A stretch of 32,000 bases of DNA from an archaeon (GTDB taxonomy: Archaea > Iainarchaeota > Iainarchaeia > Iainarchaeales > CSSED10-239): contig DAOMZT010000003.1 in NCBI GenBank assembly GCA_035400625.1, positions 1 to 32,000 of the forward strand, written 5' to 3'. A program made the position numbers and the translations under genes. Below, piece by piece: positions 1,698 to 29,336 of the stretch (within the stretch, counting starts at the first letter, position 1; the number at the start of each line of letters is the position of its first letter). The notes beneath the pieces were generated by a model, which saw nothing but the letters and a program-made list of their open reading frames with translations, ran no database searches and was not told where the DNA came from.

Positions 1698-3131
1698 ATG
1701 ATCAAGTCTAAAAAAAAGGCACAAGTTTCTGTAGAAGCACTAATTTTAGTTGGGATAATTGTTTTAGGTGCAACAATATTTGCATCAATGTATCTAAATA
1801 GAATAACACATGGTATAAATAGTTCAACGAAATTAGATGCTGGATTAAGCGATATTTTTAATGATCCATTTAACAATGGCACAAGTACAGATATAAATGA
1901 AGAACCTCATATAGATTCCGATATAATATTTAAAATCACTTTAGCTCTTGACCCTCCTAGTGCTAGTTCTATAAATCAACCTTTTAGAGTGGGTGTTACT
2001 TTAGATAACAATACAGGCATATCGGGAGCGAAAATTAATAAAGTTGAGATATATAAAGAGGCATTAACTGCCACCAATTGTACTTTGATTGGAGAAACAT
2101 CAACAACTCCTGGAACTTATGAAGTGAATATCCTATTTAACTCTAGCAATTTAAAAACTTTAGAATTTAGATGTTCTGCAGCAGGAACCTATAAAATCAA
2201 AGTATTTGCAGAAATACCTGGTACTGAATATTTAACAGATAATATAACACCAGATAAAATAATTACATCTGGACTTTCATCTTATGCTGTAAAAATCGAA
2301 GAACCAAGAAACGATACTTATTTGGTTTTAGGAGGTACTTCTAATTTTAAAGCAAGTGTTACACCTTCTCCAAATTCAGGAGAAACAGATCATTGCATGT
2401 GGTATGTTAATGAGAAACCAATTACCGGATCATCAACACCAAACACATGTAATTTAGAAAACATTTCATTGTCTGAACCACTTTTTACATTGGGCGAAAA
2501 TGAAATATCTGTTTTTGCAACCAGATATTCAAATGGAGTCATGATAAATAATGCAGAATCTAATGTGAAGGTAAAAATAATAAAGATGCCAGGAGCTAAC
2601 GAATTAATTTTATTTGCACCTAGAAAAGTTTTTGTAGGAGATAATTTTAATATAAAAGTATATGGCCTTAATCAAAGCCAAGTAGAAAATGCAGGAAGAA
2701 ATACATCTGATTTCTCATTTACTACAAATTGTGAAGTAACTAGCAATTCTTCTGTTTGTGGTTCTGCAATGATATATGCCACAACAGGAACTAGCACAAT
2801 ATATTTTTGTGATTATCCTGCAGTTTGTTTACGAGCTGCATATGATCAAACATCACCACACAATCCAAAAGATGTCACTGTAAGCTTAGCAGGCAGTACT
2901 CCTGCAAAGTTTTTCTCAGTATATGATTTGGCTTATTATTCAGGAAATTGTAATACTACAGCAACAGAGTATGGGATTTTGCAATCATGTGTTATGCCAT
3001 TTACTGGTGGTTTAGGATATAATGATGATTATTGGAGAGATAGTAGTTATGGCTTTTTAAAATCATACATTGATCAAGCATCAGAAACCAACACCAATAA
3101 TTACGGAAAAATAATAGGATATATTTCATAA
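1698..3131 (+). CDS. Extracellular protein of unknown family with an N-terminal archaeal class III (type IV pilin-like) signal peptide.
   Basis: The N-terminus is MIKSKKKA|QVSVEALILVGIIVLGATIFASMYL: a basic leader, K-A at -2/-1, Q at +1, E at +5, then a hydrophobic helix. This matches the QxSxE class III signal / DUF361-like pattern. The rest is rich in Cys and N-x-S/T with Ig-like beta-strand character, and there is no other TM segment. Confidence 0.6.
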   Translation: MIKSKKKAQVSVEALILVGIIVLGATIFASMYLNRITHGINSSTKLDAGLSDIFNDPFNNGTSTDINEEPHIDSDIIFKITLALDPPSASSINQPFRVGVTLDNNTGISGAKINKVEIYKEALTATNCTLIGETSTTPGTYEVNILFNSSNLKTLEFRCSAAGTYKIKVFAEIPGTEYLTDNITPDKIITSGLSSYAVKIEEPRNDTYLVLGGTSNFKASVTPSPNSGETDHCMWYVNEKPITGSSTPNTCNLENISLSEPLFTLGENEISVFATRYSNGVMINNAESNVKVKIIKMPGANELILFAPRKVFVGDNFNIKVYGLNQSQVENAGRNTSDFSFTTNCEVTSNSSVCGSAMIYATTGTSTIYFCDYPAVCLRAAYDQTSPHNPKDVTVSLAGSTPAKFFSVYDLAYYSGNCNTTATEYGILQSCVMPFTGGLGYNDDYWRDSSYGFLKSYIDQASETNTNNYGKIIGYIS

Positions 3132-3199: not shown

Positions 3200-5170
3200 A
3201 TGAAAATTTCAAAAATATTTTTAATTTTAGTGATAGGGATAATATCTTTAAATGTGGTATTTGCTGGACAAATAACCCAAAAAAATTATATGATAAAAGG
3301 AGATTTAACAATAAATGATTTATTGCATGATGCATGTGTAAACGGGAAATCATGGGCAGAATTATTATATTCAGATACTATATACATCCCAGATGATAGA
3401 CCTGCATCACAATTTTCTGGCTTAAATGATTTTTTTGATCAATTGTTTTTTGCAGAAGCAGCATCAAAATGTAATTTAGAAATTTATTCTCCATCAGGAA
3501 TCAAAATTAAAGAATATAAAAATCTTAGTGCAGAAGGAATAAAAGAAGGATTAAACTTAGGAATCGTAGTAGGTCCGATTAGTGATTCGGGTAATGATGT
3601 ACAGACTTTTATTGTAAAAATTAGAAAGCAGTCAAATTCTGCAGTTTTATTAGAGACCAATATAAAAACATTAAATCCAAGTTCAGGGATTGGAATATAT
3701 GCTGATTATATTAGAGATAAAAGCATAACACCTTCTAAATTAATCACACATAGCGTGGTAGATAGTGGTGTGTCAGATAATGGAAAAGTTTTATCTTGGG
3801 ATGGCATAAATAAAATAATGGATTGGGAATACATTGGCTCTGAAAATTTAGGTTCTGATATTATTCAATGGACACATTTGTCAGGTCCAGTTAAAGCATT
3901 AATAAGATCTAAACTTAGTAAAAGTATTTATACTGCAGATCCTGTTATAGAATATCCAGATGATTTTGAAGCATCTAATAAGTATTTACAGATACCAATT
4001 ACAGAAAACGGCACCACAACAATGTATTATTTACGATTATCAACTTTAAAGGAGCAACCTCCGATATTAAATATTGCTGAAGATTCTATACAGGCATTGA
4101 TTGGTCAAACAATTCATCATGTAGATGCAATAATAGACAATATTAAAAAAGATTCTGTATCTCCTAAAGCAGAGATAATTGGCAACCAAGGATATTATAA
4201 TATATTAGAAATTGTTGGGAGTCCTGAGATTGTTACCGAAGGGGGAGTAGAAAAAGCAAGAGTTTATTTTAAATGTAATGAACATAGTGCCTATGCTTCT
4301 GATCAATTAAAAATTAAAATTTCGGCAAACCCTTATTATCCTCAATACCAAGCAGTAAGTGATACTGTTGATGTAAATTGTTATAGTAATCAATCTTTAG
4401 CTCCATCAATCACAATATTAAATGAAGGTGTAATCATGATTGTTGGAAAATATTATCCTTTAGCATATACAGCCCATAATGTTGCATCTGTTGCGTGGAG
4501 TGCAATTCCATCACCACATTACACTTTTAATACTATTGATGGTGTCCAAAACATAAAATGTAATACTGTGGATAAGGATATATCTATAACAGCCACTGGA
4601 AATCCTAATTATAATTGGTTCCCTCCAGCTACAGACACATTTGGTGCAAGCTGTGTAGCAAGTAATGAAGGAGGCCAACCACCAGGAACTTGTTTCTTAG
4701 CAGGAACAAAAGTATATACCACAAATGGCTGGAAGAATATAGAAACAATAAAATCTGGAGAGAAAGTGTATTCATATTCAGATGATGGAAAGTTAGTAGA
4801 AACTAATGTTAAATCATTATTGATACACGATTATGTAAATGCAGGAGATAAATCTGTGAAGTTAGAATTATCAAATAACATTGTGTTATTTGTTACATCA
4901 AATCACGCATTTTATAGCCCAACAGAAAAAAAATACAAACAATTGAAAACCTTTAATATCGGAGATGATCTATTATACTACCATGTAACAAAAAATGCAT
5001 TCGAAAACGTACAAATAAGCAAAATTACTGAATTACCAAGCTTTAGCAAAGTTTATAATCTTGCATTAGACAAACCAAACAACTATCTTGCTGAAGGAAT
5101 TGTAGTACATAACCGCGAAAAAGAAGGAGAAGTAACAATTCCACAAGGTGGAGATGAAAGTTACCAATAA
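3200..5170 (+). CDS. Sec-secreted protein of unknown N-terminal family ending in a Hint (intein-like, BIL-type) autoprocessing domain.
   Basis: GGTGA lies 5 nt upstream of the ATG. The Sec-type signal peptide is MKISKIFLILVIGIISLNVVFA|GQ. The C-terminal 141 aa carry all the intein splicing blocks (see the Hint feature). Confidence 0.7.
   Translation: MKISKIFLILVIGIISLNVVFAGQITQKNYMIKGDLTINDLLHDACVNGKSWAELLYSDTIYIPDDRPASQFSGLNDFFDQLFFAEAASKCNLEIYSPSGIKIKEYKNLSAEGIKEGLNLGIVVGPISDSGNDVQTFIVKIRKQSNSAVLLETNIKTLNPSSGIGIYADYIRDKSITPSKLITHSVVDSGVSDNGKVLSWDGINKIMDWEYIGSENLGSDIIQWTHLSGPVKALIRSKLSKSIYTADPVIEYPDDFEASNKYLQIPITENGTTTMYYLRLSTLKEQPPILNIAEDSIQALIGQTIHHVDAIIDNIKKDSVSPKAEIIGNQGYYNILEIVGSPEIVTEGGVEKARVYFKCNEHSAYASDQLKIKISANPYYPQYQAVSDTVDVNCYSNQSLAPSITILNEGVIMIVGKYYPLAYTAHNVASVAWSAIPSPHYTFNTIDGVQNIKCNTVDKDISITATGNPNYNWFPPATDTFGASCVASNEGGQPPGTCFLAGTKVYTTNGWKNIETIKSGEKVYSYSDDGKLVETNVKSLLIHDYVNAGDKSVKLELSNNIVLFVTSNHAFYSPTEKKYKQLKTFNIGDDLLYYHVTKNAFENVQISKITELPSFSKVYNLALDKPNNYLAEGIVVHNREKEGEVTIPQGGDESYQ
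4691..5113 (+). other. Hint / mini-intein-like domain of 141 aa with no homing endonuclease.
   Basis: Block A is CFLAGTKVYTTNGWKNIETIKSGEKVYS, starting at Cys498. Block B (TxxH) is VTSNHAFYS. Blocks F/G are VYNLALDKPNNYLAEGIVVHN. The residue after the terminal Asn is Arg, not Cys/Ser/Thr, and only 18 more residues follow before the stop. Confidence 0.85.
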
Positions 5171-9269: not shown

Positions 9270-10097
9270 ATGAAGGAAAATGTTTTTGTTAAAGACAAAC
9301 TAAAAAAGATGGCAATTGCTCAGTATCTACAAAAGAAACTAAAGCAAGCAGGATTTATAGATGTTGAGGTAATTAAGTCACCAATTTCCACAAGAGTTAT
9401 TATCTATGCTTTAAGGCCAGGTTTTGTTATTGGTAAAAGCGGATATAATATCAAGGCATTAACTGAGGATCTAGAAAAAGATTTTGGTTTAAATAAAGTG
9501 CATATAGAGATTGGAGAACTACAAAACAAAGATCTTGATCCTAGGGTAATAATTGAAAATATTTCAAATGATATCGGCAGAGGAATTGCTTGGAAGTCAG
9601 CAGTTTATAGGGCAATGACACAGATGAGAAATGCAGGAGCAGTAGGTGCTGAAATTGTAGCAAAAGGCAACACTGCTGGTAAAGGTCAAAGAAAAAGATC
9701 TTCAAGATATGCATTTGGATATTTAAAAAAAGCAGGTTCACAAAAAGACCTTGTTACTTTTGAAAAAAGAACAACCTTTCCTGGTCTAGGAACAATCGGC
9801 ATAAGACTTAGAATTGTTCAGCCAGAAACTGTCTTTTCAGACAAGATCGATGTTAAGGAGTTATCTCACAGACACAAGCTTTTAAGAGAACAAAAAAAGC
9901 TAGAGAACAGAGAGGAAGAGGTTGAAAAAGAAACAAAAGTAGCAAAAGAAAAAATAGAAGAAAAGAAAAAACCAAAAGAAGAAGTAGCAAAAGAAAAAAA
10001 ACCTGCAAAAGAAGAAAAAACAGAAAAGAAGCCAAAAGCAAAAAAAGAAACCAAAACAGAAAAATTAGAAATAGTAGAAGAAATAATTGAAGAGTGA
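9270..10097 (+). CDS. rps3: 30S ribosomal protein uS3 with a K/E-rich C-terminal extension.
   Basis: KH-domain motif VIGKSGYNIKALTEDLEK and synteny. The last ~70 aa are a low-complexity KEKKP/KEEK tail. Confidence 0.93.
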   Translation: MKENVFVKDKLKKMAIAQYLQKKLKQAGFIDVEVIKSPISTRVIIYALRPGFVIGKSGYNIKALTEDLEKDFGLNKVHIEIGELQNKDLDPRVIIENISNDIGRGIAWKSAVYRAMTQMRNAGAVGAEIVAKGNTAGKGQRKRSSRYAFGYLKKAGSQKDLVTFEKRTTFPGLGTIGIRLRIVQPETVFSDKIDVKELSHRHKLLREQKKLENREEEVEKETKVAKEKIEEKKKPKEEVAKEKKPAKEEKTEKKPKAKKETKTEKLEIVEEIIEE

Positions 10098-11244: not shown

Positions 11245-11639
11245 AACCAATAAGTTCAAATGTAACAAGAGGGCTTCAAGCAGGCTCCAGATGCTTATGT
11301 TCAGATAATAGCGGCGCTAAAGAAGTAGAGATAATTTCAGTCATTGGTGTTAAAACAAAAAAAAGAGGAGTACAGTCAGCAGGAATAGCGTCTCTTCTAA
11401 ATGTTGTTGTTAAAAAAGGAAAGCCAGCAATGAAGAAGAAAATGGAAAGAGCAGTTGTTATTAGAGTTAAAAAAGAATACAGAAGAAAGAACGGCTGGAG
11501 AATTTGCTTTGAAGATAATGCAGTTGTCTTAACAGACCCTAAAGGTTTTCCAAAAGGCTCAGAAATAAAGGGTTGTGTTGCAAAAGAAGTTGGAGAGAGA
11601 TTCCCTAAGATTGCAGGGCTAGCCAGTGCAGTTATTTAA
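11241..11639 (+). CDS. rpl14: 50S ribosomal protein uL14
   Basis: GLQAGSRCLCSDNSGAKEVEIISV matches the L14 family. ATGA overlap with the uS17 stop. Confidence 0.95.
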   Translation: MKPISSNVTRGLQAGSRCLCSDNSGAKEVEIISVIGVKTKKRGVQSAGIASLLNVVVKKGKPAMKKKMERAVVIRVKKEYRRKNGWRICFEDNAVVLTDPKGFPKGSEIKGCVAKEVGERFPKIAGLASAVI

Positions 11640-11664
11640 GATAATTATTTTGGGTGAATAAAAA

Positions 11665-12027
11665 ATGATTAATAAAACAAAAAAACCAGGAAAGAACAGA
11701 AAAAGAATGTTAACTGGTGTTTATCATGTTAAAAGAAAATTATTAGTTGCTCCAATTGACAAGCCACTTATAAAACAAGTAAATAAGAAAAGAACATCTT
11801 TGAGAAAAGGAGATGGTGTTAAAGTGCTTGTTGGAGACAATAAAGGAAAAACAAGTGTTGTAGACAGGGTAAACTATGACAAAGGAGTAGTTTATCTTAA
11901 AGATTTCAAGGTGACAAACTCAAGAGGTCAAGAAAAATTAATACCTTTTAAGGCCTCAAACCTAGTAATCACATCATTAGTTTTAAATGATAAAAAAAGA
12001 TTTGTTGAAAAAAAATCAAAAAAATAA
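11665..12027 (+). CDS. rpl24: 50S ribosomal protein uL24
   Basis: KOW motif LRKGDGVKVLVGDNKGKTSVV and synteny. Confidence 0.92.
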   Translation: MINKTKKPGKNRKRMLTGVYHVKRKLLVAPIDKPLIKQVNKKRTSLRKGDGVKVLVGDNKGKTSVVDRVNYDKGVVYLKDFKVTNSRGQEKLIPFKASNLVITSLVLNDKKRFVEKKSKK

Positions 12028-23602: not shown

Positions 23603-24658
23603 ATGGATAAAGCGAATACAAAACCTAAAAATTTTGAAACAACAGAAAACAGAACACCACAGAGCAGAACTCTTGTTAATGTTGATTTATATCTTAAGAA
23701 CGGAATACATATTGGAACAAAATATAAGAATGGGCCAATGAGAAAGTTCGTATTCAAGTCTAGAAACGACAAAATCAATGTAATGGATGTTCAAGTAATT
23801 GACAAGAGAATAAAAATTGCAATTGATTTTATTTCTAAATATGAACCAACAGATGTTGTGTTTATTTCAAGGAAAAAATATGCTCTTCCTGGCATTAAAA
23901 TCTTAGAGCAAGCATTTGGCTATAAATCAAAATTAAACAGATTTATTCCAGGAACTTTTACAAATCCAGAATCAGAACACTTCATAGAACCAAAATTGGT
24001 ATTTATTGCAGATCCTAATGTGGATAGACAGGCAATTGTAGAAAGCACAAAAGCAAATATCCCAATAATTGCTCTTTGTACAACTTCTAGTAATACAAGA
24101 AATATAGATTTTATTATTCCTTATAACAATAAAGGAAGAAAATCAGTAGCATTGTTCTTTTGGTTATTAATAAGAGAGTTAGAATTAAAGAATGGGATAA
24201 TAAGATCAGATAAAGATTATGCATATTCAATTGATGATTTTGTATATAATAGCGAAAGTGGTGAAAAAGAAATAGATGAAGATCAGCCACTTCCAGGAAA
24301 GAGAACAAGAAAAGTCTCAGCTAAAACAACAGCTAGAAAACCAGTAGCTGGTGGCAGAAGACCAAGCACAGCAGGTGGTGCTCCAAGAAAGCCTTATGTT
24401 AGAAGAACACCAACCACAACCACTCCTTCAAAAGAAACAGATAAAAAAGAGGAAAAGCCATCAGATGGAACAGAGAAAAAGCCAGTAGAAAAAAAAGAAA
24501 AGCCAGCAGTAGCCAAGAAAGAAAAACTATCAGAGGAACCAAAGAAAAAAGAAGACAAGCCAGCGGTAGCAAAGAAAGAAGACAAACCTACAGAGATTAA
24601 GAAAGAAAAGCAAGCAGATGTTAAGAAAGAAGAAGTTGCTGAAGAAAAAAAAGAATAG
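23603..24658 (+). CDS. rps2: 30S ribosomal protein uS2 with a C-terminal extension of about 120 aa rich in basic residues, Pro and K/E.
   Basis: YLKNGIHIGTKYKNGPMRKFVFKSRNDKINVMDVQVIDKRIKIA matches archaeal S2. The tail starts at about aa 235 (PGKRTRKVSAKTTARKP...) and ends in ...VKKEEVAEEKKE. Confidence 0.93.
   Translation: MDKANTKPKNFETTENRTPQSRTLVNVDLYLKNGIHIGTKYKNGPMRKFVFKSRNDKINVMDVQVIDKRIKIAIDFISKYEPTDVVFISRKKYALPGIKILEQAFGYKSKLNRFIPGTFTNPESEHFIEPKLVFIADPNVDRQAIVESTKANIPIIALCTTSSNTRNIDFIIPYNNKGRKSVALFFWLLIRELELKNGIIRSDKDYAYSIDDFVYNSESGEKEIDEDQPLPGKRTRKVSAKTTARKPVAGGRRPSTAGGAPRKPYVRRTPTTTTPSKETDKKEEKPSDGTEKKPVEKKEKPAVAKKEKLSEEPKKKEDKPAVAKKEDKPTEIKKEKQADVKKEEVAEEKKE
24471..24505. repeat. 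A 35-nt segment in the uS2 tail that is perfectly identical to 29220-29254 in the L7Ae tail.
   Basis: cagagaaaaagccagtagaaaaaaaagaaaagcca occurs at both loci and encodes (T/A)EKKPVEKKEKP. Confidence 0.95.
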
Positions 24659-24660
24659 GT
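24620..24660. repeat. A 41-nt segment at the uS2 3' end that is perfectly identical to 29288-29328 at the L7Ae 3' end.
   Basis: gttaagaaagaagaagttgctgaagaaaaaaaagaataggt is found at both loci. It spans the last 12 codons, the TAG stop and 2 nt beyond. The identity extends to 48 nt with one mismatch. Confidence 0.95.
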
Positions 24661-25524: not shown

Positions 25525-25580
25525 TTTTGTTCCTTATTCTATTATAGTATATTTATATTAGATTACTAGGTTGAGAAATA

Positions 25581-28271
25581 ATGGGTCAAAAATTAATTAG
25601 AAATAGAGAAACTTTATCTAAAAACAACAAACCACAAAAAACCGATTTAAAAAGAAAAGCACAAGCAACAATGGAAGTTTTGATTATAATGGGTGTTTTA
25701 GTTGTTGGAGTAATAATATTTGGAACTTTTTATTTTGGAAATATTGGTGAGAGATCAAGAGGTTCAGCAGGAATTTCTAGAGACATGAATGAATCTGAAT
25801 TAAAAACCAGTTATGATAAAGCGATAATCTATGATGGTGTTGATCAAGTATCAATGGATGGTGGTAGTAGCCATATTGTTCCAGATGATGGCGATAGCGA
25901 TGATGAAGATGGGGATGAGCCACCAGGTTCAGATGAAACTGGCCCTCCAACAATATTGGTATTTGATACAAGAAATACAAGTGATGGTTCTTCTGGGTCA
26001 CCCTCTCCTTCTTCTACTGGCAATCAAATCGGGTCGCCATTAGAAGACGAACCACTATTAGAAGAAATAGACACTTATAATTTTAATGTTGATTGGAATG
26101 ATGACACAGATAGTAATATCACTTTTTGGAGCCAACCAGAAGCAACCCCTACCAATTCAGGTCCTGGAAATCTCCCTTCTTCTGACATCAGTCAAATCAG
26201 GTTGCCATTAGAATCTTCAGGGACTTATAATTTTAATGTTGATTGGAATGATGGTACAAACAGCCACATTACTTCTTGGAACCAGCCAGAAGCAACACAT
26301 ACTTATTCAGAGCCAGGAATTTATGAAATAAAAATAACTGGAGTAATTAAAGGATTTCGTTTTAATAATAATGGCGACAGATTAAAACTTATAGAAATAA
26401 AAAACTGGGGCAACCTAAATCTAGGTAATAACGGTTATTATTTTTATGGTTGTTCTAATCTAGATATTACAGCAACAGATGTATTGGATTTAAATGGCAC
26501 AACAAATTTAAGAGGTTTATTTTATAAATGTAGTAGTTTAGTATTTAATGAAAGCATAAATTCATGGGATACCTCTAAAGTAACTAATATGGGGTCTATG
26601 TTTAATAAGGCTTCTAGTTTTAATCAACCATTGTCTTTTGATACATCTAATGTAATTAATATGTCTTTTATGTTTTCTACTGCTTCTAGTTTCAATCAAC
26701 CTTTAGATTTTAATACCTCTAGTGTAACAGATATGTTTGCGATGTTTCAGTGTGCGACCGATTTTAACCAGCCTTTATCTTCTTTTGATACTTCTAATGT
26801 AACTGATATGCATCATATGTTTGGATGTATTTATGATATGAGTTTCAATCAGTCCTTATCAAATTTTGACACCTCTAAAGTACGCAATATGTCTTATATG
26901 TTTCGTTATGCTTCTAGTTTCAACCAGTCTTTATCTAATTTCGATACCTCTAATGTAACTGATATGCAACATATGTTTTATCATGCATCTAGTTTCAACC
27001 AGTCTTTATCTAATTTCGATACTTCTAATGTGACCGATATGTGGGATATGTTTTTCCATGCATCTAGTTTCAACCAGCCTTTATCTTCTTTTGATACTTC
27101 TAAAGTAACTAATATGGGTGGTATGTTTTCAGGTGCAAGTAATTTCAACCAGTCTTTATCTTCTTTTGATACTTCTAAAGTAACTAATATGCGTGCTATG
27201 TTTTTTGGTGCACGTAGTTTCAATCAGCCATTATCTTCTTTTGATACTTCTAATGTAACTGATATGTATGGTATGTTTTCAGGTGCGAGTAGTTTCAATC
27301 AGTCTTTATCTTCTTTTGATACTTCTAATGTAACCGATATGCATTGGATGTTTAGAGATGCTTCCAGTTTCAACCAGCCCTTATCTTCTTTTAATACCTC
27401 TAATGTAACCGATATGTCTGAGATGTTTAGGAATGCATCAAGTTTCAATCATCCCTTAGATTTTAATACAACTAATGTAACCGATATGTCAGGTATGTTT
27501 TCTGATGCAACCAGTTTTAATCAGCCATTAGATTTTGATACTTCTAAAGTAACCGATATGAGTAGCATGTTTTTTGGGGTTACAAATTTCAAGTCGCCTA
27601 TAAATTTTGATACCTCTAATGTAACTGACATGTCCTACATGTTTTACAACACTTCAAGTTTCAATCACCCCTTAGATTTTAATACCTCTAATGTCACTAA
27701 TATGTCTTTTATGTTTTATGGTGCATCAAGTTTCAATCACCCTTTAGATTTTAACACCTCTAATGTTAATGGAATGACTGGTATGTTTTATGGCGCTTCC
27801 AGTTTTAATCAACCATTAGATTTTGATACTTCTAAAGTAACTAATATGGGGTCTATGTTTTTTAATGCAACAAATTTCAATCATCCATTGGATTTTGATA
27901 CTTCTAGTGTAAGATATATGAGTCGTATGTTTTTAGGTGCTTCCAGTTTTAATCAACCTTTAGATTTTAATACTTCTAATGTCACTGATATGTCTTTGAT
28001 GTTTTATAGTGCATCTAATTTCAATTCCACCTTGTCTTTTGATACATCTAATGTAACCGATATGTCTGCAATGTTTTTCCAAGCTAATAGTTTCAATCAT
28101 CCCTTAGATTTTAATGTCTCAAAAGTAACTAATATGGGAGGTATGTTTAATAATGCATCCAGTTTCAACCAAGACATTAGCTCATGGGATGTAGAAAATG
28201 TTACAAATTGGTCAGGAATATTTACTAATTGCCCAATACAAACAGACTATAAACCTGAAAAGTTTAGATAA
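25581..28271 (+). CDS. Large surface protein of 896 aa. Its parts are a class III (type IV pilin-like) signal peptide, an acidic/Ser-Pro linker, a duplicated beta-rich module, and about 23 tandem DUF285/BspA-type leucine-rich-like repeats.
   Basis: The N-terminus is ...DLKRKA|QATMEVLIIMGVLVVGVIIFGTFYF, with K-A at -2/-1, Q at +1 and E at +5. The repeat consensus is F(D/N)TS(N/K)VT(D/N)MxxMFxxASSFNQ(P/S)L(S/D), characteristic of DUF285 (PF03382)/BspA-family proteins. No C-terminal TM or sorting signal is present. Confidence 0.8.
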   Translation: MGQKLIRNRETLSKNNKPQKTDLKRKAQATMEVLIIMGVLVVGVIIFGTFYFGNIGERSRGSAGISRDMNESELKTSYDKAIIYDGVDQVSMDGGSSHIVPDDGDSDDEDGDEPPGSDETGPPTILVFDTRNTSDGSSGSPSPSSTGNQIGSPLEDEPLLEEIDTYNFNVDWNDDTDSNITFWSQPEATPTNSGPGNLPSSDISQIRLPLESSGTYNFNVDWNDGTNSHITSWNQPEATHTYSEPGIYEIKITGVIKGFRFNNNGDRLKLIEIKNWGNLNLGNNGYYFYGCSNLDITATDVLDLNGTTNLRGLFYKCSSLVFNESINSWDTSKVTNMGSMFNKASSFNQPLSFDTSNVINMSFMFSTASSFNQPLDFNTSSVTDMFAMFQCATDFNQPLSSFDTSNVTDMHHMFGCIYDMSFNQSLSNFDTSKVRNMSYMFRYASSFNQSLSNFDTSNVTDMQHMFYHASSFNQSLSNFDTSNVTDMWDMFFHASSFNQPLSSFDTSKVTNMGGMFSGASNFNQSLSSFDTSKVTNMRAMFFGARSFNQPLSSFDTSNVTDMYGMFSGASSFNQSLSSFDTSNVTDMHWMFRDASSFNQPLSSFNTSNVTDMSEMFRNASSFNHPLDFNTTNVTDMSGMFSDATSFNQPLDFDTSKVTDMSSMFFGVTNFKSPINFDTSNVTDMSYMFYNTSSFNHPLDFNTSNVTNMSFMFYGASSFNHPLDFNTSNVNGMTGMFYGASSFNQPLDFDTSKVTNMGSMFFNATNFNHPLDFDTSSVRYMSRMFLGASSFNQPLDFNTSNVTDMSLMFYSASNFNSTLSFDTSNVTDMSAMFFQANSFNHPLDFNVSKVTNMGGMFNNASSFNQDISSWDVENVTNWSGIFTNCPIQTDYKPEKFR
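26005..26311 (+). repeat. In-frame tandem duplication inside the repeat-protein gene (copy A about 26005-26171, copy B about 26172-26311).
   Basis: There is a 31-nt perfect identity, acttataattttaatgttgattggaatgatg, at 26073-26103 and 26223-26253. The flanks are similar (…caaatc.gg.t.gccattagaa…, …ccagaagcaac…). At protein level the copies read YNFNVDWNDDTDSNITFWSQPEATPT and YNFNVDWNDGTNSHITSWNQPEATHT. Confidence 0.85.
26565..28235 (+). repeat. Array of about 23 tandem coding repeats (DUF285/BspA-type) with a 72-75 nt period. The central units at about 26860-27400 are the most similar at nucleotide level.
   Basis: Visible periodic recurrence of ...agtttcaa(c/t)cag(c/t)ctttatct(t/a)(c/a)ttt(t/c)gata c(t/c)tctaa(t/a)gtaac(t/c)(g/a)atatg.... 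Confidence 0.9.
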
Positions 28272-28822: not shown

Positions 28823-29326
28823 ATGGCAGACTATGTTAAGTTCAGCGTACCAGAGGATTTAAAGAATCTTCAAGCTGATGTTGTTTCAAAGATTTCTAAA
28901 TCAGGTAAAGTTAAAGTGGGAATCAATGAAGTAACAAAAATGGTAGAGAGAAACACAGCAAAATTAGTATTGATTGCAGAAGATATAACTCCTGCAGAAA
29001 TAGTAATGCACCTTCCTGTAATTTGTAAAGAAAAGAACATTGCATTCAGTTATGTTTCAACAAAGGAAGAGCTTGGAAAGATATCAGGAATAAATGCAAA
29101 AGCGAGTGCTATAGCTGTTGTTGATGAAGGAGTTTTAAAAAAGGAATTCTCTGCATTAATCTCAAAGATTGAAGAGTTAAGTGGCGGAAAACCAAAACCA
29201 GAAAGTAAACCAAAACCAGCAGAGAAAAAGCCAGTAGAAAAAAAAGAAAAGCCATCTGAAAATAAAAAAGAAGAAAAGCCAGCAGAAGTTAAGAAAGAAG
29301 AAGTTGCTGAAGAAAAAAAAGAATAG
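28823..29326 (+). CDS. rpl7ae: 50S ribosomal protein L7Ae (eL8 family, kink-turn binding) with a K/E/P-rich C-terminal tail of about 45 aa.
   Basis: KVKVGINEVTKMVERNTAKLVLIAEDITPAEIVMHLPVICKEKNIAFSYVSTKEELG matches L7Ae. GGAGGT lies 6 nt upstream of the ATG. The tail ends in ...VKKEEVAEEKKE, the same as uS2. Confidence 0.93.
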   Translation: MADYVKFSVPEDLKNLQADVVSKISKSGKVKVGINEVTKMVERNTAKLVLIAEDITPAEIVMHLPVICKEKNIAFSYVSTKEELGKISGINAKASAIAVVDEGVLKKEFSALISKIEELSGGKPKPESKPKPAEKKPVEKKEKPSENKKEEKPAEVKKEEVAEEKKE

Positions 29327-29336
29327 GTGATTGATA

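Follow-up and report, generated by a model that had tools for sequence, protein, structure and literature searches.

A prepilin-type N-terminal module in front of a PARCEL-repeat solenoid in a candidate surface adhesin of a DPANN archaeon

Modular type IV pilins are common in the CPR, ultra-small bacteria that are the counterparts of the DPANN archaea, and Dataset S1 of the study describing them already contains bacterial fusions of a pilin to DUF285 (IPR012902-IPR005046) (Raynaud et al. 2021, PMC8179133). The function of the PARCEL motif, which corresponds to DUF285 (PF03382), has never been established experimentally, and as of 2010 the motif was reported to be conspicuously absent from Archaea (Roske et al. 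2010, PMC2996958). On the archaeal side, it is already established that large binding or adhesin-like proteins can carry class III signals; the Pfam model of the signal, PF04021 (Class_IIIsignal), was built on the Epd/DUF361 class, and type IV pilus loci as well as Epd-like 'system 1' filaments have been reported in DPANN archaea. Little is known of the molecules by which these archaea attach to their hosts, and the protein described here is a concrete and recurrent surface candidate.

The gene lies on the forward strand, as do all features given below, of the window, by which we mean the whole stretch of 32,000 nucleotides that was analysed; the available evidence supports its assignment to an archaeon of the Diapherotrites/Iainarchaeota type with a small genome. 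The ORF (25581-28271) encodes 896 aa, and the same protein, with the same start, was called on 14 contigs from several metagenomes and the MAG GCA_029563035.1. The organism occurs in digester or sludge samples, e.g. ERR1414224 and JGI 3300025772. The TATA-like block tATTATAGTATATTTA (25540..25557) upstream of it is a putative promoter: this AT-rich element is kept in the orthologous loci L172 and L173, and the intergenic sequence flanking it diverges.

The protein starts with a basic leader of 27 aa, MGQKLIRNRETLSKNNKPQKTDLKRKA (25581..25661; 9 K/R, 2 D/E), which is predicted to be removed after Ala27 by class III signal peptidase. The mature N-terminus would then be a pilin-type hydrophobic helix, QATMEVLIIMGVLVVGVIIFGTFYFGNI (25662..25745), with Gln at +1 and Glu at +5. 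The boundary reads KRKA/QATME (the slash marks the predicted cleavage site), with K-A at -2/-1, Q+1 and E+5 all there, and K-A/Q-A-T-M fits the FlaFind motif ([KRDE][GA][ALIFQMVED][ILMVTAS]x3 with a hydrophobic stretch near the N-terminus); the segment that follows has a Kyte-Doolittle mean of 2.7. In the AlphaFold2 (AF2) model a helix covers aa 22-55. The only hydrophobic segment of the protein is aa 26-57, every other 19-residue window having a Kyte-Doolittle mean of 0.56 or less, therefore there is no C-terminal anchor, in agreement with the original prediction, which had named the N-terminal helix as the sole tether; the short hydrophilic C-terminal tail CPIQTDYKPEKFR, which with the stop codon occupies 28230..28271, carries neither an anchor nor a sorting signal. 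The leader is, as had also been remarked, unusually long (27 aa vs. a family median of 8 aa). Ortholog leaders measure 7, 22 and 23-28 aa, and their sequence is not conserved.

PF04021 scores 13.5 bits on the whole protein and 18.8 bits on the N-terminus alone, below the gathering cutoff of 23.7 bits, and of the two Pfam matches that the original prediction had put forward for checking by HMMER only the one to PF03382 is above its cutoff. PF04021 is the top match, over the full length of the model, on every N-terminus of this kind that was compared (16.9-28.5 bits), and a relative from the same lineage, L076, passes the cutoff at 28.5 bits. The N-terminal methylation motif PF07963 (IPR012902) has no match on the protein. 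At the ortholog loci, conservation of the DNA, third-position changes included, starts exactly at the predicted cleavage site. Q+1, E+5, L+7, G+11, G+16, I+19, F+20 and Y+24 are invariant in six proteins with unrelated cargo, and Glu at +5 (E32), which is a criterion for type IV pilins, is invariant in the module formed by the boundary and the helix. Type IV pilins and Flp pilins use a buried acidic residue in filament assembly, and such a residue is costly in a plain membrane anchor. Comparison with relatives, rather than the Pfam threshold, thus supports reading the N-terminus as a probable prepilin-type (class III) signal, of the kind with Q+1 and E+5, and in this the original prediction, which had pointed to the residues at the boundary and to the hydrophobic helix, was sustained by the motif and by the conservation beginning at the predicted cleavage site.

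An acidic stalk rich in Asp, Ser, Gly, Glu and Pro (25746..26105, aa 56-175) follows the helix. It had been foreseen as an acidic linker; its 120 aa (D20, S18, G14, E10, P9) have a net charge of -24, and the AF2 model (pLDDT mostly <50) predicts it to be disordered. The model has no globular pilin head packed against the C-terminal half of alpha-1, the helix (22-55) being followed by disorder up to residue 175. Because Flp/Epd-type pilins are also headless, the missing head counts against a classical pilin but not against the Flp/Epd class. Beyond the stalk lies a PKD-like beta-sandwich (26106..26405; weak PKD/PKD_4 matches at aa 214-253, strands at aa 179-275 with pLDDT >90), a region conserved across 97 homologs, which in many DUF285 proteins forms the conserved N-terminal domain. 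A match of this domain to NF058578 'CPR pilus PamR' (26 bits vs. a cutoff of 300) was set aside as generic Ig-like similarity. A partial internal duplication (26057..26319), in which 26057-26169 and 26207-26319 are 78% identical, accounts for two TYNFNVDWND.T...QPEAT segments (50 aa, partial).

The N-terminal cap and degenerate first turns (26406..26564, aa 276-328) lead into an LRR-like solenoid of 22 PARCEL/DUF285 repeats and a C-terminal capping half-repeat (26565..28229), which were delimited by HMM, DNA repeat array and AF2. The units are 24-27 aa long with the consensus FDTSnVTdMsxMFxxASSFNQP, and there are 23 FN[QH]x[LI] motifs including that of the capping half-unit; the coding DNA has a period of 72-75 bp (21.8 copies, 73% match). 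PF03382 (DUF285) matches with E=3.5e-261 (850.1 bits vs. a cutoff of 25) and TIGR02167 'PARCEL repeat' with 285.7 bits (cutoff 30) over 16 stretches. The ectodomain is thus, as proposed, a long repeat solenoid of a surface-protein family, and the repeats are of the DUF285/PARCEL type, but the accompanying term 'BspA-type' had to be dropped: PF13306 (LRR_5) has no match at E<=0.1 on the 896-aa protein, strict BspA membership was therefore rejected, and the term stems from a conflation in NCBI naming. The AF2 core model has a pLDDT of 91.6 and a pTM of 0.89. With the trimmed high-confidence core Foldseek found LRR proteins in all of the top 50 listed matches, which were weak (best E = 7e-3, TM-scores ~0.14-0.38), and for the full-length model the matches, to LRR and beta-helix proteins, were all weak (best E = 0.018); no PDB relative was found by sequence, either for the whole protein or for the N-terminal module. 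In the AF2 prediction the repeats come behind the N-terminal helix, with the disordered stalk and the PKD-like sandwich lying between them.

The K-[GA]/Q-x-x-x-E helix module also heads two other large proteins of the genome and the syntenic orthologs. One of the two (1698..3131, 477 aa, MIKSKKKA/QVSVEALILVGIIVLGATIF) has unrelated cargo and scores 22.3 bits with PF04021; an ortholog fragment of it was named 'class III signal peptide-containing protein [Candidatus Diapherotrites archaeon]' by NCBI. In 52 kb (the window and 10 kb on each side) K-A/Q-A-T-M followed by a hydrophobic stretch occurs at the N-termini of three large ORFs only, and the Sec signals of other large surface proteins in the neighbourhood are of the ordinary kind. 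A word-indexed search with the module profile returned six small proteins only and missed known large members, therefore an exhaustive profile search was used, which yielded 188 representative clusters. K-[GA]/QxxxE stands at the extreme N-terminus in 148 of the 150 top representatives; 58 representatives are pilin-sized (<250 aa) and 90 are larger. Sequences outside the profile also score well (P0173 65.9 bits, P0006 46.3 bits). The large proteins carry varied cargo of adhesin type, e.g. CHB_HEX_C_1, GLUG and DUF285, the last in 6 of 77. The module is strongly conserved across unrelated cargo and the leaders vary in length and sequence: it is a conserved portable unit common to pilin-sized and many large adhesin-like proteins. 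The earlier argument that known pilins are small and the protein is thus exceptional did not survive this comparison, since 61% of the module proteins exceed 250 aa and pilin-DUF285 fusions have been catalogued in bacteria; the design is common in the lineage and not a one-off. Elsewhere, four kinds of pilin-type N-terminus are fused to PKD-DUF285, namely Pilin_N (P0038), DUF7289-like (P0008), Q-type (P0006, P0021) and bacterial N_methyl+T2SSG (P0003).

The gene sits at a conserved position in a ribosomal-protein superoperon, not in a pilus locus. Within 52 kb around it we found no gene for an A24 peptidase, a secretion ATPase or a platform protein and no small module-bearing pilin gene; the protein has no solute-binding (SBP) domain, nor is there a transporter neighbourhood around the gene. 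In relatives of the same architecture the contig also encodes an A24 peptidase; this is the case for P0008, which is the first of three consecutive class III genes, and DPANN A24 peptidases were recovered from fragments adjoining P0008 and P0037. Scanning GTDB representative genomes with an A24 profile yielded 80 loci, mostly from Iainarchaeum, ainarchaeum or Forterrea. The A24 peptidase gene adjoins SRP54, not pilus genes, in 31 of 115 DPANN loci, which suggests a general secretory role for the peptidase, and when pilus ATPases were sought near DPANN A24 peptidases every Walker-A match turned out to be SRP54.

The explanation we prefer is that an adhesin-like surface protein is displayed via the type IV filament (class III signal) route, in the favoured version as a low-abundance or tip subunit, i.e. 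an archaeal 'modular pilin'; we consider the chances of this being correct to be about even. We infer cleavage, incorporation into a filament and adhesion to a ligand from established knowledge of prepilins. The basic 27-aa leader would stay in the cytoplasm and the hydrophobic segment would insert N-in/C-out, an A24-family class III signal peptidase would cut between Ala27 and Gln28, and the mature protein would be held by its N-terminal Q1...E5 helix alone, a helix of the Flp/Epd (DUF361) kind that would constitute the whole pilin module. The 120-aa acidic stalk would project the PKD-like sandwich and the ~540-aa, 22-repeat PARCEL solenoid off the cell to bind a ligand, and the type IV filament machinery would, in the favoured version, take up the helix as a low-abundance or tip subunit. 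The filament route draws support from the conservation of the module across cargo, from its 58 pilin-sized carriers and from the invariant E+5, also from the four kinds of pilin-type N-terminus fused to PKD-DUF285 and the class III run of P0008 with its A24 peptidase, and, outside our own data, from the modular pilins of Raynaud et al. and the type IV pilus loci and 'system 1' filaments reported in DPANN archaea. The lack of pilus genes in 52 kb, the site in the ribosomal superoperon and the sub-threshold PF04021 score count against it.

It is very hard to believe that the true start is Met31, in which case there would be no leader and no processing site and the protein would open with the hydrophobic segment. 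The length of the leader, an outlier, would suit such a start, and ATG 25671 is the only alternative start codon. M1 is however the sole usable start 5' of the helix, with an in-frame TGA two codons before it and no ATG, GTG or TTG codon in the reading frame from M1 to M31, and it has a Shine-Dalgarno-like GGTTGA (25569..25574) 6 nt 5' of ATG 25581, in an arrangement (GGTTGA-N6-ATG) that is kept in L172; GGTGA or GTGA stands 5-10 nt before the start in most genes of the window. An SD-like element was sought upstream of M31 and none was found, KRKAQAT just before M31 fits the family motif, orthologs retain 22-28 open codons upstream, and at the position of M31 P0006 and the paralogs of 477 and 876 aa have Leu or Val. 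With Leu at this position in the ortholog P0006, M31 cannot serve as a general start, and it was rejected on the strength of the missing SD, the motif and these substitutions. We also regard it as improbable that, instead of being a class III substrate, the N-terminus acts as a signal-anchor that stays uncleaved, as in a type II membrane protein, or as an ordinary signal of the Sec/SPase I kind. Such a reading would agree with the PF04021 score below threshold and with an n-region whose 27 aa are atypical among archaeal class III signals, but it leaves the K-[GA]/Q...E boundary of 148 of 150 relatives, and the conservation starting right there, unaccounted for. Moreover, the h-region has ~24 residues with no plausible A-x-A site soon after it, which together with the conserved boundary led us to reject a Sec/SPase I signal; the classical Sec signals on neighbouring secreted proteins of the genome are clearly different, and the NCBI name given to the ortholog of the 477-aa sister protein speaks for class III.

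More weight must be given to the possibility that, once the peptidase has taken off the leader, the helix stays as a membrane anchor, or in a bindosome-like envelope assembly, with the acidic stalk spanning the S-layer and the protein never entering a pilus fibre, even if we are inclined to doubt it. The helix without a pilin head domain and the long disordered stalk behind it fit a plain anchor spanning the cell envelope as well, and most carriers of the module are large multidomain proteins whose cargo is interchangeable (CHB_HEX_C_1, GLUG, DUF285), a proportion that suits a general anchoring device no less than a filament subunit. The absence of pilus genes nearby, the conserved position of the gene inside a housekeeping operon and the 31 of 115 DPANN loci with the A24 peptidase beside SRP54 point the same way, and the class III-signal binding proteins of Sulfolobus provide a precedent. 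On the other hand, the invariance of E+5 and of the helix glycines across all cargo types is hard to explain in a mere anchor, the same module is borne by the 58 small, pilin-sized representatives, and the bindosome itself is thought to need an assembly system of the type IV filament type.

It is plausible that the protein is an attachment device. Display via the filament route, our preferred explanation, can be carried further into a proposal that we think unlikely to hold as a whole: in DPANN archaea of the Diapherotrites/Iainarchaeota type the helix-only Flp/Epd-like module would have become the general carrier of giant interchangeable adhesin modules (PARCEL, CHB_HEX_C/Fn3_assoc, GLUG, InlB-B-like), the lineage would attach to its hosts by thin type IV filaments decorated or tipped with these, the conserved site of the PARCEL member in the ribosomal superoperon would serve constitutive high expression, and the exceptionally long leader would add a control step. 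The census of module proteins shows that a single conserved prepilin-type module precedes many large adhesin-type domains in the lineage, and K-[GA]/Q-x-x-x-E followed by a helix is a simple sequence rule by which candidate attachment proteins can be listed in such genomes. With these results both the 'modular pilin' idea, which came from bacteria, and the family of PARCEL repeats are extended to Archaea. They do not amount to a new mechanism, as there are precedents for class III signals on large proteins, for pilin-DUF285 fusions and for PARCEL surface proteins.

It is instructive to compare the protein with the known systems it resembles. Like the BspA-like LRR_5 (TpLRR) adhesins of Tannerella, Trichomonas and Entamoeba it is a surface protein with an LRR-like solenoid, and the BspA-like structure 4h09 is among its weak fold matches, but those adhesins belong to another repeat family, defined by PF13306, and the name is shared via NCBI product naming only. 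With the PARCEL/DUF285 proteins of Mollicutes, Listeria and others it has in common tandem repeats of ~25 residues, a strong HMM match, a membrane-targeting N-terminus and an origin in small-genome, host-associated organisms (PMC2996958); the Mollicutes and Listeria proteins are lipoproteins or Sec-secreted, whereas the anchor found here is an archaeal prepilin-type signal. The Sulfolobus bindosome and other class III-signal binding proteins likewise have a large ectodomain after the signal and helix and are encoded outside the filament locus, but the cargo of the bindosome is a solute-binding domain working with ABC transporters, and here it is a PARCEL solenoid outside any transporter context. 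Gln+1, Glu+5 and a helix-only module are shared with the Epd/DUF361-type pilins (the EppA/EpdA substrates of Methanococcus) and with bacterial Flp/Tad pilins, which are small subunits encoded in pilus operons, unlike the present helix, which carries ~840 more residues and is encoded in a ribosomal operon. The bacterial modular pilins, e.g. P0003, present a bulky module on a class III signal and pilin helix in the same manner and even have the same cargo, PKD-like and DUF285. They differ in having the N-methylation motif PF07963 (matched in P0003), a globular pilin or T2SSG domain and a short linker to the cargo, in place of which the archaeal protein has a Q+1/E+5 signal of the archaeal kind preceded by a 27-aa leader, and a headless helix continued by a 120-aa acidic stalk.

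The ORF at 25581-28271 (+) encodes a protein of 896 aa. The identical protein, with the same start called, is present on 14 contigs from ENA, JGI, Logan and NCBI assemblies, one of them JAKQTP010000138.1 (598,880 bp, MAG GCA_029563035.1). Two codons before the ATG at 25581 the frame is closed by a TGA, and no ATG, GTG or TTG occurs between M1 and the alternative downstream start, M31. Most genes of this organism have a GGTGA-type Shine-Dalgarno sequence 5-10 nt before them; M1 has GGTTGA 6 nt upstream, and no Shine-Dalgarno-like element precedes M31. The GGTTGA-N6-ATG arrangement is kept at the orthologous locus L172, and in the ortholog P0006 the equivalent of M31 is Leu. Because of this start-codon evidence we consider the 27-aa basic leader real.

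The leader is followed by a K-[GA]/Q-x-x-x-E cleavage site (the slash marks the predicted cut) and a hydrophobic helix, hereafter the module. A FlaFind-style pattern combined with a hydrophobic stretch, used to pick class III candidates, matched this protein and two others of the same genome, a 477-aa protein without Pfam domain (1698-3131, MIKSKKKA/QVSVEAL...) and, 10 kb upstream, an 876-aa protein with GLUG motifs and weak M26-peptidase-N similarity (flanking locus L004, 131-2761, MMVKKKKA/QVALEIL...). The latter two share the K-A/Q...E module and have leaders of normal length, 8 aa; classical Sec signals are found on other large surface proteins of the neighbourhood. In six aligned N-termini carrying unrelated cargo, Q+1, E+5, L+7, G+11, G+16, I+19, F+20 and Y+24 were invariant and the leaders were unconserved. 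When four orthologous loci were aligned, DNA conservation started abruptly at the predicted cleavage site; along the helix most differences fell on third codon positions, and there were indels in the leader. PF04021 (Class_IIIsignal), the family named in the original prediction, was the top match, over the full model length, on all these module N-termini. For the 896-aa protein, however, the score stayed below the cutoff of 23.7 bits (13.5 bits with the whole protein, 18.8 with the N-terminus alone); the 477-aa protein reached 22.3 bits and an Iainarchaeal relative 28.5 bits.

When 1.84 billion representative proteins were searched exhaustively with the module profile (HMMER, E<=1e-3), 188 clusters were obtained. 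In 148 of the best 150 of these, [GAS]/Q-x-x-x-E and a helix were located at the extreme N-terminus; in the same 150, position -1 was G in 90 and A in 57, and position -2 was K in 133. The leader had been described as unusually long, and it is: 27 aa, compared to a median of 8 aa in the best 150 clusters. Leaders of at least 20 aa occurred in only nine of the 150, and since in most of these an internal Met precedes the site by 5-8 residues, most are probably miscalled starts. No alternative of this kind exists in the 896-aa protein or its L172 ortholog, so the long leader is a genuine outlier. Among the best 150, 58 were shorter than 250 aa and 90 were longer. Pfam content, tabulated for 77 large members, included CHB_HEX_C_1/Fn3_assoc and GLUG (21 each), DUF285 (6), InlB-B-repeat-like Flg_new_2 (5), Peptidase_M26_N (3), Ig-like Big_7 (2), and RCC1, lectin-like, PKD and HINT (one each). 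Judged from these sizes and cargo, the protein is one member of a broad class combining a pilin-type helix with adhesin-type cargo. Of the new facts, we consider the lineage-wide census and the outlier leader the most useful.

Residues 56-175 are acidic and of low complexity (net charge -24). They are followed by a PKD-like beta-sandwich (residues ~179-275), a conserved domain that many DUF285 proteins share at their front and that is partially duplicated here (50 aa), and by 22 PARCEL (DUF285) repeats and a cap. The protein has 38 N-x-S/T sequons, roughly one for each repeat. The predicted DUF285 assignment was borne out (PF03382, E=3.5e-261; TIGR02167, 285.7 bits). The name 'BspA-type' has to be abandoned as a naming conflation, because the Pfam search gave no LRR_5 match on this protein. 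There is a single hydrophobic segment, so the protein lacks a C-terminal anchor, as had been claimed. The AF2 model of the core (residues 176-560, pLDDT 91.6, pTM 0.89) supported the expected solenoid, which was LRR-like. Residues 56-175, between helix and sandwich, are predicted by AF2 to be disordered. All 50 best Foldseek matches listed were LRR proteins (Nogo receptor, designed LRRs, VLRs, TLRs, BspA-like 4h09). As these matches were weak (best E = 7e-3, TM-scores ~0.14-0.38) and the PDB contained no sequence match, PARCEL is a predicted LRR-like solenoid without close solved representative.

The window (GC ~32%) contains an archaeal ribosomal-protein superoperon (L3, L4, L2 ... SecY ... 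uS2, then L7Ae, S28e, L24e, aIF5B). An ortholog fragment of a neighbouring gene was found in a MAG named 'Candidatus Diapherotrites archaeon'; the organism is presumably a DPANN archaeon with a small genome, which its contigs of 0.6-0.8 Mb would suit. The positional ortholog P0006 (496 aa, 7-aa leader) is encoded between the TrmB and dCMP deaminase/L7Ae genes of a relative with 70-94% identity in the ribosomal proteins. Synteny also identifies P0069 (leader of 23-28 aa) and P0166 (leader of 22 aa) as orthologs, and the order TrmB, gene, dCMP deaminase(-), L7Ae is kept in three relatives. Pilin-signal DUF285 genes lie within ribosomal-protein operons at 25581-28271 in the window, and in L008 (10001-11491), L172 (3291-3908), L173 (542-850) and L011 (10001-11239); this placement may indicate high constitutive expression. 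A more distant contig, also from DPANN, has a Pilin_N-like DUF285 gene after SUI1 in an S10-type operon, and TrmB-family regulators also occur near DUF285 genes in L010 and L011. Lengths among relatives are 496, 685 (P0169) and 896 aa. In L008 the ortholog is followed by two short DUF285-repeat ORFs (11506-11958, 56 and 75 aa); the array may be interrupted by frameshifts or misassembly, or else the number of repeats changes between relatives.

Several other features of the region deserve mention. A common Lys/Glu-rich C-terminal tail, ...EKKPVEKKEKP...VKKEEVAEEKKE, is found on the uS2 and L7Ae proteins; it is encoded by a ~116-nt direct repeat (24545-24660 and 29213-29328, 77% identical) whose copies flank the TrmB-adhesin-deaminase segment. 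In L008 a similar tail is present on L7Ae, not on uS2, which suggests that the tail was copied onto uS2. The uS3 protein (9270-10097) has a KE-rich tail as well. A 656-aa protein (3200-5170) has a classical Sec signal, ~480 aa without family match and, at its very C-terminus, a pretoxin-HINT/intein-like domain with no toxin module after it. A 972-aa protein (18-1601, continuing upstream, L004 6986-9904) has a Sec signal and at least four CHB_HEX_C_1/Fn3_assoc domains; this cargo is the most frequent class III module partner in other genomes, and the DUF285 ortholog of L008 has it immediately upstream.

The original prediction was correct in what it observed at 25581-28271, and its interpretation is supported in part, as regards a class III-type N-terminus on a repeat ectodomain. 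The mechanism we consider most likely from the sequence is class III processing, after which the protein would be displayed via its pilin-type helix. The 52 kb analysed around the gene contained neither an A24 (prepilin) peptidase gene nor genes for a secretion ATPase or platform protein, and small ORFs bearing the module were likewise not found there. In relatives, P0008 (Candidatus Iainarchaeum MAG) begins a series of three adjacent class III genes on a contig that also encodes the A24 peptidase P0136, and P0037 has an A24 peptidase ~10 kb away. We regard the chances as about even that the protein is a minor or tip subunit of a Flp/Epd-like filament; a close rival, which we hold only tentatively, is a purely membrane-anchored protein that never enters a filament. 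In 31 of 115 evaluable DPANN loci (A24 loci L012-L171, L092) the gene for the class III signal peptidase is directly preceded by SRP54, and a search up to 10 kb from the peptidase in L012-L091 revealed no secretion ATPase. Proteins of 101-108 aa (P0162, L008 6802-7107, two genes upstream of the ortholog; P0164, P0165, P0167) begin with the class III module, followed by ~45 polar residues and a second, C-terminal hydrophobic segment, which is unusual for a pilin.

It is instructive to compare these results with known systems. PibD and EppA, archaeal prepilin peptidases, cut N-terminal to the hydrophobic domain, leaving the helix that scaffolds filaments (PMC6098224). Epd-type pilins without globular domain, 'System 1' filaments in DPANN archaea, and class III signals on thousands of archaeal binding proteins as well as on adhesin-like proteins have been described (bioRxiv 10.64898/2026.04.22.720090), and type IV pilus loci with divergent pilins were noted in DPANN (PMC6393860). 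When PARCEL was defined in 2010, Archaea were conspicuously without it (PMC2996958), and none of the papers searched ties DUF285 to pilins or to class III signals in archaea. The 120 proteins homologous to the first 340 aa include fusions of PKD-DUF285 to pilin-type N-termini of several kinds: Q-type (P0021), archaeal Pilin_N (P0038, 24.9 bits), DUF7289-like (P0008) and bacterial N_methyl + T2SSG pilin (P0003). More than 1,200 bacterial 'modular pilins' of 264 architectures are known (PMC8179133), and Dataset S1 of that study already contains IPR012902-IPR005046, i.e. pilin motif plus DUF285. The protein described here is an archaeal addition to a kind of protein that is already known.
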